A stretch of 42,176 nt of DNA from Acidimicrobiia bacterium. Lineage in GTDB: Bacteria > Actinomycetota > Acidimicrobiia > Spongiisociales > ZC4RG35. The stretch covers positions 1 through 42,176 of the forward strand of contig JBKHXZ010000187.1 of the NCBI GenBank assembly GCA_046565785.1. Direction: 5' to 3'. The translations under genes and the position numbers were made by a program. Below are positions 1 through 37,700 of this stretch, piece by piece (the stretch's first letter is position 1; each line of letters begins with the position of its first letter). Below the pieces are notes generated by a model, which saw only the letters and a program-made list of their open reading frames with translations, did no database searches and was not told where the DNA came from.

Positions 1-660
1 ACGACCGTGCACGAGGGAGAGGTCGTGGTGATCATCGGACCGTCCGGCTCGGGAAAGTCCACGTGGATCCGCTGCATCAATCGGCTCGAAGTCCATCAGG
101 AGGGTCGGATCGTCGTCGACGGGATCGAACTGACCTCGGACGTCAAGAACATCGAGAAGATCCGCTCCGAAGTGGGGATGGTGTTCCAGCAGTTCAACCT
201 CTTCCCGAACCTGACAGTCCTGCAGAACATCACGCTCGCCCAGACGTGGGTGCGTAAGCGGACCAAGCGGGAAGCCGAGGAAAAGGCCATGTCCCTGCTG
301 GAACGAGTGGGGATCCAGGAACAGGCGGCCAAGTATCCGGGTCAGCTATCCGGCGGACAACAGCAGCGGGTGGCGCTGGCGCGGTCCCTGGCGATGGATC
401 CCCGGATCATGCTGTTCGACGAACCGACATCCGCGTTGGATCCGGAAATGATCAAAGAAGTACTGGACGCCATGAAGGAGCTGGCACGGTCGGGTATGAC
501 CATGTTGGTGGTCACCCATGAGATGGGATTCGCCCGGGAGGTGGCCGACCGGGTGATCTTCATGGATCAGGGCCAGATCGTCGAAGAGGGGACACCCGAG
601 CACTTCTTCACCAACCCCCAGCACGACCGCACCAAACTCTTCCTCTCCCAGATCCTCTAG
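1..660 (+). CDS. Polar amino-acid ABC transporter ATP-binding protein (GlnQ-like), 5'-truncated by window edge
   Basis: Walker [10 protein letters not shown]-loop VFQQFNLF, signature [10 protein letters not shown], Walker [21 protein letters not shown]-terminal [10 protein letters not shown]. Confidence 0.95.
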
Positions 661-665
661 TCCGC

Positions 666-715
666 AACCCTGGGTTCTGCACCTTGTAGAGCGCGGTTTC
701 GGCGCACCAGTTCAG
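666..715. repeat. REP-like element family A, single arm
   Basis: aaccctgggtt-ctg-caccttgtagagcgcgg (666-696) matches 37579-37609 at 28/31; the following gcaccagtt matches the other arm of the 37576-37700 palindrome. Confidence 0.75.
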
Positions 716-723
716 AGGGTGGG

Positions 724-768
724 CCCGCGGCGGCCGGTCCCGCCCCACGAGGGAGCGGCCACCGCGGG
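724..768. terminator. GC-rich stem-loop (18-bp stem, 9-nt loop)
   Basis: cccgcggcggccggtccc (724-741) / gggagcggccaccgcggg (751-768), 16/18 complementary. Confidence 0.65.
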
Positions 769-791
769 TTGCGGAGGACCCACGCCGCTCG

Positions 792-818
792 TTCGGAGCG
801 GACACGCCCCCGGATTGG
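792..818 (-). promoter_or_regulatory. SigK-type ECF promoter (orphan copy)
   Basis: Minus strand CCAATCC-N15-CCGAA(C), same architecture as 22955-22981, 24499-24525 and 30409-30435. Confidence 0.65.
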
Positions 819-860
819 TTCCCGGGCGGACTTGCCGGTGATTCCTACCCTTGACGGTGC

Positions 861-1934
861 ATGCGTCGTGCAACCCTCGTCGGAATCGTTCTGGTCGGCG
901 GCACCCTGGTCGGAGCGGGTGCCTTCGTGCTTTCTCCGCCGGTCGGCATCGTCGACGCTGCACTGACCACGACGACCCTGGCGCCGATCGCAGTCGAGAC
1001 CACGGTGCCGCCTACGACCCTTCCACTGCCGTCGAGCACCACCACCACGACGCTTGCCCCTCGACCCGTCGTCATCCACGCCGTGGGAGACGTGAACTTC
1101 GACACTTCGTATGTCCCCAACCTCGCCACCCACGGTTACGAGTACGCCTTCGCCGGTCTCGACGGCCTCTTCGCAGATGACGACCTCACCATCATCAACC
1201 TCGAATGCAGTCCGTCGCTGCTGGGATCGCCCCTTCCCAAGGAGTTCACCTTCCGCTGCGACCCGGCCTCCCTCCCCGTCGCCCGTGCGGCCGGTGTCGA
1301 CGTCGCCAATCTCGCCAACAACCACGGGCAGGACTTCGGTACCCAGGCCATGCTGGACGGATGGGAGAACGTGAACCGCTCCGGGATCCGGGCGGTCGGT
1401 GTGGGCCAGAACCTCCGCATCGCCACCCGTCCGGCCATCCTCGACGTCGGGCCGTGGCGGGTAGCGGTGCTCGGCATGGGCGGGGTGGTCCCGTCGTCTA
1501 CCTGGCTCGCCACCGAAGACTCACCCGGAATGGCCTCCGGCGACGACATCGAACAGATGGTGCAGGCGGTGCGTGCCGCCACCGAGATCGCCGACTACGT
1601 GGCTGTGAGCATCCACTGGATGTGGGAGTTGGAGACCGAGCCCCGCCCGGACGATCGGGAACGGGCCGAAGTCATGATCGCCGCCGGTGCGGACATGATC
1701 TTCGGTCATCACCCGCATCGTCTCGGCGAACTCGAGTTCATCGACGGCAAGCCCGTGTTCTGGACACTCGGCAACTTCATCTGGCCCCGGCTGAGCGACG
1801 CCGGGTCGACCACCGCGGTGGCGCGGGTGGTGATCCATCCCGACGGTCGGTTGGAAGCGTGCATGATTCCCGCCTTCATCGAAACCTCCGGCCAACCCGT
1901 GCTGCGGGGACCGGCACCGTGTGGTGAAGAGTGA
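861..1934 (+). CDS. CapA/PgsA-family metallophosphatase-fold exported protein
   Basis: N-terminal hydrophobic anchor, Thr-rich linker, motifs AVGDVNF, INLE, LANNHGQDFG, SIHW, GHHPH, LGNF. Confidence 0.88.
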   Translation: MRRATLVGIVLVGGTLVGAGAFVLSPPVGIVDAALTTTTLAPIAVETTVPPTTLPLPSSTTTTTLAPRPVVIHAVGDVNFDTSYVPNLATHGYEYAFAGLDGLFADDDLTIINLECSPSLLGSPLPKEFTFRCDPASLPVARAAGVDVANLANNHGQDFGTQAMLDGWENVNRSGIRAVGVGQNLRIATRPAILDVGPWRVAVLGMGGVVPSSTWLATEDSPGMASGDDIEQMVQAVRAATEIADYVAVSIHWMWELETEPRPDDRERAEVMIAAGADMIFGHHPHRLGELEFIDGKPVFWTLGNFIWPRLSDAGSTTAVARVVIHPDGRLEACMIPAFIETSGQPVLRGPAPCGEE

Positions 1935-3465
1935 TGAACCGGCGGCTGATGGCGACGGTGGTCGTCGTTCTCGGAAGCGCCGGCGGAGTCGGAGCCTTCG
2001 CTGTGGTCGGTCCCGCCGAACTGAACATCGACGCCGCATCGACGACGACCACCACGACCACCACCACCACATCCGTTCCGTCCACCACCTCGACGCATCC
2101 CCCCACCACGACCACCACCGTTGCGGTGCGCGCCGAAGGGTCGGTTCCGGCCTGGACGGTGGGAGAACCGTGGGGGACGACTCCGGGGCTGACCATGTTC
2201 CGAGGCAACCCCACCCGCACCTTCTACGGCACCGGGCCGTTGTCCACCACCGCCCCCGACGTGTTGTGGAGCTACCCGGACTCGCCCATGTGCGGGACTT
2301 CGGTGGTCGGAGGCGAGTCGAGCGTGTGGTGCGGTACCGGCTGGACCGGCCAGCCGGCGGTGTGGGACCGTCCCGACGGCGTCACCGAAGTGGTGTTCGG
2401 GGCGTACGACAAGGCAGTGCATTTCGTCGACGCCGAAACCGGGGAGCCCACTCGCGAGCCTTTCGTGACCGGCGACATCATCAAAGGTTCGGTCACCGTC
2501 GACCCCGACGGATATCCGCTCCTGTACACGGGGAGCCGGGACAACAAGCTCCGGATCCTCGCACTCGACCGGGAACCGGTGGTCGAACTGTGGTCGATGG
2601 ACGCCAACGAAGTCCAGGGGATCTGGAACAACGACTGGGACGGCAACCCGGTCGTGGTCGACGACATGCTGTACGTCGGCGGGGAGAATGGGTGGTTCTT
2701 CGCCATCCGGCTGAATCGACAGAGGGTGGCAGGAGAGGTGACCGTCGATCCCGAGGTGGTCTTCGCCATGCCGGGATGGAACGACGAGCTGGTTGCCCGG
2801 GTCGGTCCGAATGTGTCGATCGAGTCGTCGGTCGTCGTGATCGATCGGGTCGTGTACTTCGCCAACTCCGGCGGGCGCATCGTCGGTGTCGACATGGACC
2901 TCGTCGACGCCGGAGTCGAAGATCCCGTCGTGTTCGACTTTTGGGCGGGTGACGACATCGACGCCACCATGGTCGCCGACGCCGACGGGATGCTGTACGT
3001 GGCAGTCGAACTGGAGCGGTTCACCGCCCGCTCCGAGGAGCTGGGTCAGCTCATCTCCCTCGACCCATCCCGACCGGACGACCCGTACCGCTGGGGCGTG
3101 CCGGTGTCCGGAGTGGGAGGATCCGACGGAGGGATCTGGGCGACTCCGCCGTCACCGGAGGCATGGTCTACGTCCCCACCCACACCGGCCGGCTGTTGGC
3201 GGTCGATTCCGCCACTGGAGAACTGGTGTGGGAGGACACTGTTGGTTTCCACGCCTGGTCTTCACCGGCGGTCGTCGAGGGGCGCCTCCTGATAGCCACC
3301 TGTGATCCGCCCGGATTGCGCAGTTACGACCTTTCGGACCCACGCCAACCGCAGCTCGAATGGACGATCCCCGCCGCCGACGGCTGCATCGAATCGACGC
3401 CGGCAGTGTGGAAAGGACGGATCTATGTCGGTAGTCGCGACGGTTTTCTGCGGGCATACGGGTGA
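1934..3465 (+). pseudogene. PQQ-binding-like beta-propeller exported protein, frameshifted near 3147 (real lesion or assembly error)
   Basis: Signal anchor, poly-Thr linker, FRGN motif, repeated SP/TP-xV blade motifs. Adding one G (ACT CCG [G]CC GTC ACC GGA GGC ATG) joins ORF 1931-3292 to ORF 3163-3465, giving IWATPAVTGGMVYVPT...IESTPAVWKGRIYVGSRDG. Confidence 0.8.
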
Positions 3466-3553
3466 CGCCGACTCGTCGTCGGTTCCCACTCCCCTACCCT
3501 TAGGAGAACGCGTCGGTGAAGAACCGGCGCTCCGCGACCCACCGGAGACGCAA

Positions 3554-4450
3554 TTGGCCTACAACGAGCACTTCGAGTTGCTGGAGTCGGTCGAACCGAC
3601 CGTCAAGCAACTCCTGGAGGAGCATCGCGCCCGGCGTAAGCCGTGGTACTTCCACGACCTCATCCCGTGGGAGCTGGGACGCAACTTCAAGACCGAACCG
3701 TGGGACGAATCCCAGGCGACACTCAACGAACGTGCGCGCACGTCCCTCGTCCTCAACCTCCTCACCGAAGACAACCTTCCGTACTACCACGTCACGCTCG
3801 AGCGTTACCTGCCGGAAGGGTCGATATGGCGGGAGTGGAACAACCTGTGGACGGCAGAGGAAGGCCAGCATGCCATCGCCATCCGCAGCTACCTGCTCAC
3901 CAGCCGCAACTGCGATCCGTACGAGCTGGAAGACGACCGGATGGCCACCATGACCGCCGGCTGGGAGCCGCGCTGGGATCATCCGGCAGAACTGTTCGCC
4001 TACACCTCCGCCCAGGAACTGGCGACTCGGGTGTCACACCGCAACGCCGGCAAGATCACCGACGACGAGACCGCCTACGAGCTGATGAAGCACATCGCCT
4101 CGGACGAGAACCATCACTTCCTGTTCTACAAGGGCGTGATGACCAAAATGCTCGAGGACCATCCCGAGGCCGCGCTCGAAGGGATCCTCAACACCTTCAG
4201 CAACTTCCAGATGCCCGGAACCGGCATCCCAGGCTATCTGCGTCGGTCCATCGAGATCGCCCGGGCCGGGGTGTACAACCTGCGGATCCACCACGACAAC
4301 GTGCTGTCGCCGCTCATCACCCAATGGGGTATCGATCGGCTGACCGGGATTTCGACCAGGGCGCAGGAACTGCAGGATCGGATCATGGCGTTACCCGCCG
4401 AGATCATCGCCAAGGCCGAACGCTTCGAAGCGAGGTTCGCCACTACCTGA
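3554..4450 (+). CDS. Acyl-ACP desaturase (DesA-like, ferritin-fold di-iron)
   Basis: LLTEDNLPYY, WTAEEGQH, QELATRVSH, DENHH di-iron motifs, FQMPG; probable TTG start at 3554 after GGAG. Confidence 0.9.
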   Translation: MAYNEHFELLESVEPTVKQLLEEHRARRKPWYFHDLIPWELGRNFKTEPWDESQATLNERARTSLVLNLLTEDNLPYYHVTLERYLPEGSIWREWNNLWTAEEGQHAIAIRSYLLTSRNCDPYELEDDRMATMTAGWEPRWDHPAELFAYTSAQELATRVSHRNAGKITDDETAYELMKHIASDENHHFLFYKGVMTKMLEDHPEAALEGILNTFSNFQMPGTGIPGYLRRSIEIARAGVYNLRIHHDNVLSPLITQWGIDRLTGISTRAQELQDRIMALPAEIIAKAERFEARFATT

Positions 4451-22271: not shown

Positions 22272-22910
22272 TCAGGAACCCGGCACGAGGACGGTGTCGA
22301 TGATGTGGACGGTGGCGTTGGCGGTCTGGACGTTGCCGCAGATGACGCTGGCACCGTTGACAGTGATGGTGTCACCGTCGGTGGTGATGGTCAGGTCTGC
22401 TCCGTTGACGGTGGTCACGGTTCCGGCGTCGGCCAGGGCTTGGGCGTCGAGGGAGGCGCCTGCCACCACGTGGTAGGTGAGGATCGAGGTCAGCAGTTCG
22501 GTGTCGGCCAGGATCGCCTCGAGGTCTTCGGCCGGGATGGCGGCGAAGGCGTCGTTGTAGGGGGCGAAGATGGTGAACGGTCCTTCACTGTTGAGGGTGT
22601 CGACCAGTCCGGCTTCGACCACGGCGCTGACCAGGGTGGACAGGACCGGGTTGTTGGATGCGGCGGTGGCGGCCGGATCGTCGGCCATCCCGTCGAACGA
22701 ACCCTCACCGTCCATCGGCACTGCCGAGCACGCCGGTCCGAAGTTGACGGTGGACAGACCCATGTCGTCCATCTCTTCCATCGCCTCGGTGGTGGTCGTG
22801 GCGGGAGCCACGGTCGTGGTGGTCGTGTCTTCGGCGTCGCCGCTGCTGCAGGCGCCGAGAACCAGGGCGAAGATCGCCATGAGGGCGACCAGTCGTACGT
22901 GCTTTCTCAT
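22272..22910 (-). CDS. Fasciclin-domain lipoprotein (MPT83/MPT70-like)
   Basis: Lipobox LGAC, Thr-rich linker, FGPAC...GSFDGMADDPAATAASNNPVLSTL, FTIFAP, LTYHVV, VICGNVQTANATVHIIDTVL; RBS GAAAGGA. Confidence 0.93.
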   Translation of the reverse strand: MRKHVRLVALMAIFALVLGACSSGDAEDTTTTTVAPATTTTEAMEEMDDMGLSTVNFGPACSAVPMDGEGSFDGMADDPAATAASNNPVLSTLVSAVVEAGLVDTLNSEGPFTIFAPYNDAFAAIPAEDLEAILADTELLTSILTYHVVAGASLDAQALADAGTVTTVNGADLTITTDGDTITVNGASVICGNVQTANATVHIIDTVLVPGS

Positions 22911-22954
22911 CGTGTGTTCCTTTCGGTCTCGACCCTCGGTGGGGTCGGGGGTGG

Positions 22955-22981
22955 TTCGGAGCAGGGGGAGGGTTGGATTGG
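22955..22981 (-). promoter_or_regulatory. SigK-type promoter of the fasciclin gene
   Basis: Minus strand CCAATCC-aaccctccccctgct-CCGAAC. Confidence 0.8.
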
Positions 22982-24490
22982 TCAGGCGTCGACGAGGACC
23001 ACGATCGAATGCCACCCGGTCGCACCGTCGGGGATGGGCCGGGCCCGCTGTTCGGTTTGCACCGTGCCGGTGCCGTCGGTGGCACGGCAGGTGATCTGGT
23101 GTCGGCCGGGGGTGGCATCCCACGCCAGACGCCACTGCCGCCAGGTGACGTCGTTCAGCTCGTCGGCCAGTTCGGCGTCTTGCCAGGGACCGTCGTCGAT
23201 CTGCACTTCGACCCGTTCGATGCCTCGGGTCTGTGCCCATGCGACCCCGGCGATGGCGGTTCGACCGACCGGGATACGCCCAAGGGGGGCGGGAGTGTCG
23301 ATGCGGGATTGGGTCTTGATCGGTGCTCGAGGTGACCAGCCGCGATCGACCCAGTAGTGGTCGAACTGGTCGAAACGGGTCAGTTCGATCTCGGCCAGCC
23401 ATTTGGTTGCCGACACGTATCCGTACAGGCCGGGAACGATCAGCCGGGCCGGAAACCCGTGTTCCGGCGGGAGAGGTTCACCGTTCATGCCGATCGCCAC
23501 CAGGGCGTCCCTGCCGTCGAGGACCGAGACGGGGAACCCGCAGGTGTACCGGTCGACCGAGCGGCCCACGATCTGGTCGGCCTGTGGCTGGATTCCCGCC
23601 TCGGCCAGCAGGTCGTCGAGGCGGACGCCCAGCCAGCGGGCATTGCCGACCAGCTTGCCGCCGACCTCATTGGAGACACAGGTGAGCGTGATGTCGGATT
23701 CGACCAGTACTCGGTCGACGAGTTCGTCGAAGGTGATGCTGAACGGTCGGTCCACCATTCCGGATATCTGCAGGGTCCAGGTGTCGGGGTCGATACGGGG
23801 GACGGTGAGGGCGGTGTCGATTCGGTAGAAGTCGGTGTTGGGGGTGACGAAGGGATCCAGGCCGGGATCGGCGAACGACACTTCGTCGGGAATCGGATCG
23901 AGGGTTCGGTCGGGGCGGGGAAGCGCCAGCCGGGAGGGCTCGATGTCGAACCGGCGTCCGGCGGCGAAGCCGATCCCGCCAACGAGGACCGACGCCGCCG
24001 CCGCCGAACCGGCGATACGGAAGAACTGGCGCCGGGACGCGGCCAGATGGGGGTCCATCTGCGGTGTGTCTCGAACCAGCCACATGAGCACTGCGATCCC
24101 GACCCCGGCTCCGATCAGGCTGGGTAGAGCGCCGAGCAACCCGGCGGTGCCCACTGATGCGGAGACGGCCCCGATCAGCCCGAACAGTCCGACGCCGAAG
24201 GCCCCGAGGAGGCGGCTGCGCCGCGCTGCGATCACACCCACGGCAGCCGAGTACGCGAAGGTCAGGGTGGCGATCCCGACCAGGAGGGCGGGCTTGTCGG
24301 CGGTCCCGAACACGTCGATAGCGAACTCCTTGACCGCCGACGGCACGCCGTCGATCACCCGGTCGCCGACATCGAAGATCGGGTTGCGTAGGGCAGGAGA
24401 GAGCGCGGCGACAGCTTGAGCGGCGGCGAGTGCGGCCAGGGCCGCCACGGTTCCGGCGACCGCGCCGCGGGTACGAGATGTGGGGGTCAT
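22982..24490 (-). CDS. Membrane-anchored molybdopterin-dependent oxidoreductase (sulfite oxidase family)
   Basis: N-terminal TM domain (FGTADK), SRRQFF, FYRIDTAL, Mo-ligand TLTCVSN, GNARWLGV, HGFPARLIVPGLYGYVSATKW, C-terminal dimerisation domain AGVAWA...PDGATGWH. Confidence 0.92.
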   Translation of the reverse strand: MTPTSRTRGAVAGTVAALAALAAAQAVAALSPALRNPIFDVGDRVIDGVPSAVKEFAIDVFGTADKPALLVGIATLTFAYSAAVGVIAARRSRLLGAFGVGLFGLIGAVSASVGTAGLLGALPSLIGAGVGIAVLMWLVRDTPQMDPHLAASRRQFFRIAGSAAAASVLVGGIGFAAGRRFDIEPSRLALPRPDRTLDPIPDEVSFADPGLDPFVTPNTDFYRIDTALTVPRIDPDTWTLQISGMVDRPFSITFDELVDRVLVESDITLTCVSNEVGGKLVGNARWLGVRLDDLLAEAGIQPQADQIVGRSVDRYTCGFPVSVLDGRDALVAIGMNGEPLPPEHGFPARLIVPGLYGYVSATKWLAEIELTRFDQFDHYWVDRGWSPRAPIKTQSRIDTPAPLGRIPVGRTAIAGVAWAQTRGIERVEVQIDDGPWQDAELADELNDVTWRQWRLAWDATPGRHQITCRATDGTGTVQTEQRARPIPDGATGWHSIVVLVDA

Positions 24491-24498
24491 GGCCCAGG

Positions 24499-24525
24499 TT
24501 CGGAGCGGCTTCAGTCCCGGATGGG
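24499..24525 (-). promoter_or_regulatory. SigK-type promoter of the Mo-oxidoreductase (near-leaderless)
   Basis: Minus strand CCCATCC-gggactgaagccgct-CCGAA, 8 nt before the ATG at 24490. Confidence 0.8.
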
Positions 24526-29236: not shown

Positions 29237-30358
29237 TCAGCTGTGCGGGTTCCCGAGGTACGGGAACACCGTCAGGTAGTCGTCGTGCGGTCCGACGCCG
29301 TCGGAGTTGATGGCTCCATCGGCATCCCGGTCCCCGAACAACCCCAGCGGGTCACCTCCGGTGACGATCCGCAACTCGATGTCGATGACATCGTCCGCCA
29401 GCGCACGGCCGTTGAGCGGACCCACTGCCTCGGTCGCCGTGTCGTACCGGAGCACGTCCGGCAACAACACTCCGGCCAGAGCCACGAGCTGGTCGTTGCT
29501 GTACGGACCTTCGGTGTCGAGCGACGAAAACGCGGTCAGGGCTGCAGCCGCCGCCGGGATGAACTGGGCGTCGTCCTTGGGATGGCTGGCGTTGAACAGC
29601 GCCTTGTTGGCGGGATCGGCGTTGACGATCGGGCCGGTCGAGTTGACCACCGTGTTGATCGCCGGACGACCCATCCGGTCGGCCTGCTGCCAGACACCTT
29701 CGGCGTTGGGGGCACTGGTGGTCGCCCACACCGCGATCTGGCCACCGAGAACCTCGTCCGGCACCTCGATCACGATCGCCAGCACGTTGAGGTTGGCGAA
29801 GAAGTCGGTCGGGTCGTCGCCGAACGCGTCGTCGCCCGCTGCTTCGACCGTGCCGAGGAACCCGGTGAGGTCGAAGAAGAACGGGTCGGAACGCAGGCCG
29901 GCGAACACCTGTCCGCCGTCACGCAGCGCCAGGGTCTGGCCGACATCACCGCGAGCGATGAGCTTGCCATCGGGCTCGAGGCTGGTGGCGTCATCGCCGG
30001 TGGCCATCCGCACTTGCACCATCTGCGGGTTCGGTCCCCGATCGATGAAATCGAACTGGAACGTGACGTCTTCGATGGTGTCCCCGTCGTTGTCGATCCG
30101 AAGTTGGTATCCGGCGACGTCCTTGTGGGCGAAGTCGGTCCCGGCGATCACACCGGCGGCGGGTGCCACGGTCATGGCCAGTACGGTGTTCGACGGGTCG
30201 GATCCTTCGAACGCGTACAGGTCGTTTATGTCGGTCTGGGCGTCGCCGGCGGCGGGACTGTCCAGATGGTCGGCGGCGCCGGCACCGGCGATCGGCGCGG
30301 CGAGTGCGAGCACCAGGCCAGCGACCAACGCGGGGCGGGCCCATGGTCTCTTTCTCAT
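29237..30358 (-). CDS. DUF4331-family secreted protein
   Basis: Signal peptide then ADHLDSP, DINDLYAF, VFAGLRSDPFFFDL, DRMGRPAINT, NGRALADDVIDIEL, FPYLGNPH (motifs recognised from memory). Confidence 0.85.
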   Translation of the reverse strand: MRKRPWARPALVAGLVLALAAPIAGAGAADHLDSPAAGDAQTDINDLYAFEGSDPSNTVLAMTVAPAAGVIAGTDFAHKDVAGYQLRIDNDGDTIEDVTFQFDFIDRGPNPQMVQVRMATGDDATSLEPDGKLIARGDVGQTLALRDGGQVFAGLRSDPFFFDLTGFLGTVEAAGDDAFGDDPTDFFANLNVLAIVIEVPDEVLGGQIAVWATTSAPNAEGVWQQADRMGRPAINTVVNSTGPIVNADPANKALFNASHPKDDAQFIPAAAAALTAFSSLDTEGPYSNDQLVALAGVLLPDVLRYDTATEAVGPLNGRALADDVIDIELRIVTGGDPLGLFGDRDADGAINSDGVGPHDDYLTVFPYLGNPHS

Positions 30359-30408
30359 TGTCTACTCCCTGTCTCCACGGCCGTGTGTCGGCCGTTCTCC
30401 AGGGATGG

Positions 30409-30435
30409 TTCGGACCCGAGCCCCCGGCGGATTGG
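30409..30435 (-). promoter_or_regulatory. SigK-type promoter of the DUF4331 operon
   Basis: Minus strand CCAATCC-gccgggggctcgggt-CCGAAC. Confidence 0.8.
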
Positions 30436-37575: not shown

Positions 37576-37700
37576 CGAAACCCTGGGTTTCCCACCTTGT
37601 AGAGCGCGGACTCGCCGCATCGGTTTGAGATGCCTCTTGTGGCCGCCTGAAACTGGTGCACTGAACCCGCGTCATACAAGGCCGGAAACCCAGGGTTTCG
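37576..37700. repeat. REP/MITE-like family A, 125-bp palindrome between convergent genes
   Basis: Perfect 17-bp terminal IR cgaaaccctgggtttcc / ggaaacccagggtttcg, extended by ccttgta..cgcgg / ccgcg..tacaagg. Confidence 0.88.

Follow-up and report, generated by a model that had tools for sequence, protein, structure and literature searches.

A SigK-type promoter motif was found at positions 791-818 on the minus strand of the window, that is, of the whole stretch of 42,176 nucleotides of an Acidimicrobiia genome analysed here, where it lies between two plus-strand genes and points leftwards, with no plausible protein gene on that side. The motif is not a chance occurrence. It belongs to a small regulon that includes an autoregulated sigK-rskA pair, occurs together with the hairpin downstream of it as a single copy in the genome, and is retained at the same place in one other species of the genus. 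Very probably it is a working SigK-dependent promoter, as predicted from its match to the regulon sites, and its product is probably a short RNA, non-coding or antisense. That the whole constitutes a genuine SigK-dependent non-coding unit, acting in cis, convergent or antisense to an amino-acid ABC operon and with the capA promoter at its back, is given slightly less than an even chance.

Layout of the locus and the SigK-type sites

The genome of the window (G000) is a 2.75-Mb assembly, which was compared with seven other species of the genus (G001-G007). A spacer of 200 nt (661-860) separates the two plus-strand genes, and along the minus strand the elements follow in the order CCAATCC (818-812), 15 nt, CCGAAC (796-791), 7 nt, a GTG at 783 and a hairpin (768-724). 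The features of the locus are the following:

1-660, plus strand: 3' part of a gene for a GlnQ-like polar-amino-acid ABC ATPase, truncated by the start of the contig and convergent with the promoter
661-675 and 761-775: left and right arms of a 15-nt inverted repeat, which closes the long-range helix in both read-through folds
665-712, plus strand: a copy of a 51-nt repeat family, directly past the ABC stop codon
712-783, minus strand: a 23-codon frame opened by GTG (72 nt, reading MGPPQPAVAAPSWGGTGRRGPTL, with its TGA at 712), rejected as a conserved gene
724-768, both strands: GC-rich hairpin, common to the convergent ABC operon and the predicted SigK-driven transcript
773-777, minus strand: CCUCC near the 5' end of the short RNA form, left free by the 74-nt fold and in part paired when the RNA reads through
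783-785, minus strand: predicted transcription start, 6-8 nt past the -10 box
791-796, minus strand: -10 box CCGAAC, preceded by T as at all regulon sites (TCGAAC at equal spacing in G003)
812-818, minus strand: -35 box CCAATCC, the same at five other sites of G000 and in the G003 orthologue
846-851, plus strand: -10 box TACCCT of the capA promoter, 9 nt ahead of the ATG at 861 and 27 nt off the SigK -35 box
861-1934, plus strand: gene of the CapA/PGA_cap family (capA), divergent from the SigK-type promoter

The original prediction of a leftward promoter with no protein gene in front of it was borne out, as the minus strand downstream of it holds just short frames or frames overlapping other genes. 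On the other side, the position of the capA -10 box implies that the capA mRNA is leaderless or almost so. This box is contained in TTCCTACCCT at 842-863 on the plus strand, and the word TTCCTACSCT ahead of capA is retained in six of the seven congeners seen. A second example of the TTCCTACSCT type was observed elsewhere in G000 (contig C63), with an ATG 7 nt downstream.

The strict motif, CCAATCC-N15-CCGAAC, had six matches in the 2.75-Mb assembly, compared with 0.21 expected under a first-order Markov model and with a single match altogether in 30 whole-genome shuffles (~0.03 expected). As a control, the motif read backwards had no match in any of the eight genomes of the genus. When a looser motif was taken in the window alone, the excess was weak (three found vs. 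0.96 expected, three being reached in 10 of 100 shuffles), and a GGAAC-type ECF box gave seven matches in the window against 1.76 expected, in unrelated contexts. In total, seven SigK-type sites were found in G000, four of them in the window, including that at 791-818, which has three sister sites within 30 kb of it. The other six sites are the following:

C39, 1679-1706: strict motif of the sigK-rskA site, with an ECF sigma gene and then a gene with an RskA_C anti-sigma-K domain
Window, 22954-22981, minus strand: strict motif, sister promoter of a fasciclin (MPT70/83-like) lipoprotein gene with its ATG at 22910
Window, 24498-24525, minus strand: CCCATCC variant, sister site of a Mo-oxidoreductase gene with its ATG 7 nt past CCGAAC
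Window, 30408-30435, minus strand: strict motif, sister promoter of a DUF4331 gene with its ATG at 30358
C59, 4027-4054: strict motif, site of a CHRD-domain gene
C113, 2514-2541, minus strand: strict match within coding DNA, with ACCGAAC in place of TCCGAAC

A longer form, C(A/C)ATCC-N14-TCCGAAC, is common to all six sites that are gene-associated or orphan, and the orphan site at 791-818 matches perfectly the extended consensus of the gene-linked ones, AC-CAATCC-N14-TCCGAAC. The match in C113 may be a promoter, internal or antisense, or else a product of chance.

The ECF sigma factor encoded in C39 carries the Sigma70_r2/r4 domains, and its best NCBIfam match is SigK at 214 bits, just under the curated cut-off of that family (226 bits), followed by the next family at 134 bits. 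The gene after it matched RskA_C with an E value of 2e-22, and the sigK gene itself has the regulon motif upstream, which is the pattern of autoregulation. The SigK-type promoter predicted at 792-818 is a genuine member of a small regulon, in which an autoregulated sigK-rskA pair and a fasciclin target make up the signature of the mycobacterial SigK regulon. The G000 boxes also resemble the published mycobacterial SigK box, which is reportedly close to CCATCC-N16-CCGAAT. Just upstream of the fasciclin gene sits the Mo-oxidoreductase gene (molybdopterin; sulfite-oxidase family, membrane-anchored), whose ATG, 7 nt past CCGAAC (24488-24503, minus strand), implies a leaderless mRNA; a longer frame initiated by TTG from 24640 probably does not mark the real start. 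The spacing at this apparently leaderless sister site is the reason for placing the transcription start of the orphan promoter at 783-785, and the GTG at 783, which had been singled out for its oxidoreductase-like spacing, is indeed found 7 nt past CCGAAC as at that site.

Two further observations concern the DUF4331 gene. Its mRNA has a small hairpin in the 5' leader (window 30365-30407, minus strand), reading CGGCCG-ACACA-CGGCCG in G000, and the counterpart in G003 (C16, downstream of 38309) reads TGGCCG-AAACA-CGGCCA, so that the outer pair covaries with that of G000. In addition, back-to-back SigK -35 boxes (GGATTGGnCCAATCC) were found in G001:C20:73815-73871 and in G003:C173 at ~69715-69772, where they separate a DUF4331 gene from a gene for a TPR-like membrane protein; in G003:C173 the leftward -10 box is replaced by TTCCTACGCT.

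Compared with the mycobacterial SigK-RskA regulon (sigK-rskA, mpt70/mpt83 loci), the G000 regulon shares the pair of a sigma factor best matched by SigK and an RskA_C anti-sigma factor, the motif upstream of the sigma gene, a fasciclin target of the MPT70/83 type and a very small size. It differs in that DUF4331, CHRD and Mo-oxidoreductase genes are also among its targets and in that its host is a member of the Acidimicrobiia and not a mycobacterium. The accessible part of PMC7509140 describes a conserved mpt83-sigK-rskA cassette and SigK-binding sites that are highly conserved among Actinobacteria, and reports that Mycobacterium smegmatis has no sigK-rskA; that of PMC4105308 describes the SigK regulon as small. 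In these parts both papers treat what triggers SigK regulons, and what they are for, as unknown, and a non-coding target is described in neither of them.

The predicted RNA and the adjoining repeat

The predicted transcript would open with G(C)GUGGGUCCUCCGCAA and carry CCUCC at 777-773. The hairpin that had been noticed at 768-724 was confirmed and has 18 pairs (13+4+1), a folding energy of -40 kcal/mol when taken alone and a z-score of -3.9. For a 74-nt RNA starting at 785, the fold has an energy of -46 kcal/mol and leaves UCCUCCGCAA unpaired ahead of the strong 3' hairpin. The hairpin energies are the same on both strands (-39.9/-40.0 and -28.3/-29.0 kcal/mol), and the hairpin may therefore be conserved merely as the terminator of the ABC operon; one U-G pair of the G000 hairpin becomes a C-A mismatch on the plus strand, which is too little to decide the strand. 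No U-tract follows the hairpin on either strand, and a terminator scan of the minus strand over positions 1-1000 gave no terminator-like call. The absence of a U-tract means that the discrete RNA of ~65-70 nt first proposed is not assured, and at least partial read-through is favoured. When the RNA is folded in its read-through form, UCCGCAACCC at its 5' end pairs with GGGUUGCGGA of the adjoining repeat, which buries the CCUCC seed in part. Chance alone predicts many occurrences of GC-rich 10-mers in G000, which limits target prediction for the putative seed. As for the frame at 783-712, most of it is the hairpin itself. No Rfam 15 family matched the whole window at gathering score, and a permissive scan of 560-960 gave three matches, all with E values of 5 or more and all outside 583-871.

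The perfect 10-bp inverted repeat pointed out at 661-670/766-775 was confirmed as exact, and at 87% identity it can be followed over 15 nt. It is absent from G003, which carries no repeat copy. The 51-nt repeat family, with a consensus of roughly CGAAACCCTGGGTTC...CCTTGTAGAGCGCGGTTTCGGCGCACCGGTTT, has 41 copies in G000: that at 665-712, a pair at 37576-37700 of the window and 38 more on other contigs. A total of 16 copies form eight inverted pairs, each folding as one long hairpin, as exemplified by the pair 37576-37626 (plus strand) with 37650-37700 (minus strand), which forms a single long hairpin of -79 kcal/mol (z -9.5). Roughly every second copy starts no more than 12 nt from a stop codon, and the family has no Rfam match; it looks like a 3'-end element of the REP/BIME or MITE kind. 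The contigs of G004 and G005 break at the spot of the repeat copy.

It had been foreseen that the stretch 661-818 might prove to be a multi-copy REP carrying the motif by chance. Only 665-712 was found to be repetitive. No second copy of 715-865 was detected in G000 by blastn, so that promoter and hairpin are single-copy, and the repeat model, run with all filters off, had no match in 715-818. The idea that the hairpin is the decayed second arm of a repeat pair was also tried and rejected, as the same model matched neither 715-818 nor the G003 spacer at E values up to 100. The likeness of the locus to REP-, BIME- or MITE-like repeats thus lies in the adjoining copy at 665-712, which belongs to a family often arranged as inverted pairs past stop codons, and the difference lies in the single-copy promoter and hairpin. 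In outline and size the stretch 661-775 does imitate a repeat pair, despite a right half that is not repetitive, because the opening 10-15 nt of the repeat copy pair with opposite-strand bases immediately 5' of the hairpin.

Regarding transcript data, a search of sequencing runs returned 11 runs, nine of which contained the stretch in whole or in part. Four of the nine were RNA (rhizosphere metatranscriptomes), with a share of at most 0.11 each. Over positions 1-4000, the contigs of these four metatranscriptomes covered the ABC gene and, in places, 2011-4000. Most came from relatives, and a few pieces within 2175-4000 matched exactly. The segment 671-2010 had no cover, which counts neither way.

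Conservation in related genomes

Among 41 related genomes searched with the DNA, just the last ~60 nt of the ABC gene were matched (31 of 41), the spacer being generally unconserved; this set includes two unpublished genomes (G027 and G038), on which no claim is based. In the seven congeners, the ABC gene is 82-87% and capA 69-75% identical to those of G000. The state of the locus in them is as follows:

G003: promoter and hairpin unit at the same place, as CCAATCC-N15-TCGAAC, 19 nt and a 12-pair hairpin
G001, G006 and G007: order ABC-capA retained in the spacer's surroundings, with other hairpins and no motif
G002: a different neighbour upstream
G004: spacer flanked by contig ends on either side
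G005: contig broken off at the ABC stop codon, no CapA match found

Promoter and hairpin were therefore found together in two of the eight genomes of the genus (G000 and G003). The ABC gene of G003 is the least similar of the seven (82%), its capA is 69% identical, and a genus tree built from the ABC gene, which is poorly resolved, did not group G003 with G000. The motif itself is identical in 12 of 13 bases between both species, compared with 25 of 52 other aligned non-hairpin columns (Fisher p 0.003); the promoter spacer is identical at 8 of 15 positions and the 5' transcribed stretch at 9 of 20. The hairpin tip UCCCUUGUGGGGAGGGA is the same in G003 as in G000, and the G003 hairpin shows one compensatory change from C-G to U-A; this change and one U-G wobble, coming from two sequences, have no statistical weight. 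With TCGAAC as its -10 box and another dinucleotide upstream, the G003 copy may be a weaker or a decaying one.

The elements proposed to lie within the RNA fared otherwise than the promoter and hairpin when conservation was checked. CCUCC is lost in G003, where GGGUACUCG (also given as GGGUACUCGC) stands opposite GGGUCCUCCGC of G000. The 23-codon frame has no counterpart either, as there is no start codon 7 nt past the -10 box of G003. A GTG 3 nt past that box is followed directly by TGA, and from another GTG, 5 nt past it, a frame antisense to the ABC gene extends over at least 165 codons, one that is closed in G000 and unrelated in sequence.

Wider scans gave no further copy of the unit. A combined pattern scan of 401 genomes of the order matched two of them, and a covariance model, built from only two sequences, had strong matches solely in G000 and G003 among 141 genomes of the family. 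Weak covariance matches appeared in nine other genomes of the family at about chance level (E 0.004-0.08 per genome), and none of the eight loci inspected, leaving out a 29-nt match in G440, was the unit. A relaxed and too permissive motif was seen nowhere beside the 3' end of the ABC gene among the 150 of 379 matches listed for the 41 relatives. In metagenomes, a pattern of promoter plus hairpin loop had no loci, while a pattern of capA -10 plus promoter had 19, none of which gave a CapA or ABC match by tblastn (0/19) and which lay in unrelated contexts, mostly of lower GC. With the unit absent from three syntenic congeners and not found again in the wider genome sets and metagenomes scanned, any function must be dispensable and lineage-restricted, and its confinement to two of the eight genomes speaks against a general repressor arm of SigK regulons.

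A proposed cis-acting unit and competing explanations

The reading proposed here starts with the release of SigK from its RskA-type anti-sigma factor, upon which RNA polymerase would start at ~783-785 and move leftward. After ~15 nt, the RNA would fold as the hairpin 768-724, which would also end the convergent ABC-transporter operon. The product would be non-coding, either a hairpin-ended RNA of ~60-70 nt, ended or trimmed there, or a read-through RNA that crosses the repeat copy and continues, as an antisense transcript, into the glnQ-like ABC gene from its 3' end. The amino-acid ABC operon might thereby be expressed less, or its expression be insulated, through convergent transcription or antisense pairing. 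In this scheme the start site and the RNA ends are predictions, and the cis effect is wholly conjectural.

That the motif is a chance match to which no polymerase binds is extremely improbable: the strict match of C113 within coding DNA may itself be chance, but the genome-wide expectation is 0.03-0.2, and the copy in question is intergenic, fits the extended consensus, has three sister sites within 30 kb and is kept in G003. A real promoter that does nothing is a more serious rival, though an unlikely one. It would be a by-product or a relic, for example half of a former divergent SigK pair such as those of G001:C20 and G003:C173, and the patchy distribution (the site being lost in three syntenic congeners), the weakened -10 box of G003 and the existence of back-to-back SigK boxes elsewhere in the genus are all in line with it. 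In Bacillus subtilis, alternative-sigma promoters give rise to many antisense RNAs, which are regarded for the most part as noise. On the other hand, the G000 copy fits the regulon consensus perfectly, and 12 of 13 motif bases were conserved in G003 vs. ~48% of the neighbouring non-coding columns, in a species whose capA is merely 69% identical. The proposed cis-acting unit resembles cis-antisense RNAs, known for example from B. subtilis, whose synthesis is started by alternative sigma factors where convergent genes end: a promoter just past the stop codon, facing into the gene, and a bidirectional hairpin are held in common, whereas the G000 motif is better conserved than noise predicts and the transcript is here a predicted one.

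Two readings assign the effect elsewhere, and both are decidedly unlikely. According to one of them, a trans-acting sRNA of ~65-70 nt would pair with Shine-Dalgarno regions through its unpaired 5' CCUCC stretch, as a repressor arm like MicA/RybB. The candidate anti-Shine-Dalgarno sequence is present in G000, where the 74-nt fold leaves it free upstream of a strong 3' hairpin, the promoter is genuine and has been kept by one congener, and ECF-dependent repressor sRNAs are known in Escherichia coli, whose sigma-E drives MicA, RybB and MicL according to the accessible part of PMC6767563. These three resemble the G000 unit in that an ECF sigma promoter leads to a short, hairpin-ended non-coding RNA, there serving as the repressor arm of an envelope-stress regulon. 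Their seeds are conserved, their terminators end in U-tracts, and they depend on Hfq and are widely conserved, whereas the seed of the G000 unit is not conserved (CCUCC is not kept in G003 and the 5' region is 9/20 identical), no U-tract is found, the 10-nt repeat helix of the read-through fold covers part of the seed, no Rfam family covers it, and the unit exists in two species only. According to the other, the two back-to-back promoters interact, so that SigK-polymerase would occlude the capA promoter or stimulate it via the supercoiling of divergent transcription. The capA -35 region lies ~4 nt from the SigK -35 box, the capA -10 box is conserved across the genus, and the gap between GGATTGG and TTCCTAC (the capA -10 word) is 23 nt in G000 and G003 alike, although the intervening sequence differs. 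Nevertheless, the same capA -10 box is found in G001, G002, G006 and G007 with no SigK motif (the upstream part of G004 being unassembled), and equal spacing in two species could be shared ancestry. Finally, a leaderless mRNA for the 23-residue peptide is highly improbable. Mycobacterial transcripts beginning with AUG or GUG are translated, and the GTG at 783 has exactly the spacing of the Mo-oxidoreductase ATG; however, the frame is mostly hairpin, and at this place G003 has a GTG-TGA or an unrelated shadow frame.

A bolder form of the cis-acting reading would make this the first non-coding arm of the SigK (ECF18/19) regulon, in which, under envelope or redox stress, the ~65-nt RNA or its antisense extension shuts the polar-amino-acid ABC importer and, its promoter being wired back-to-back with that of capA, a single sigma-binding event re-programmes both neighbouring operons; we regard this as unlikely. 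A literature search that reached less than full texts found no SigK-dependent non-coding RNA.

Confined as it is to two species, the unit has limited general importance. The locus nevertheless displays a compact, motif-defined regulon comprising sigK-rskA and the fasciclin, DUF4331, CHRD and Mo-oxidoreductase genes. If the cis-acting reading is true, a conserved SigK promoter without a protein target, aimed at an amino-acid importer, would tie this small regulon to nutrient uptake, and it would represent a simple case of ECF-driven cis regulation in Actinobacteria.
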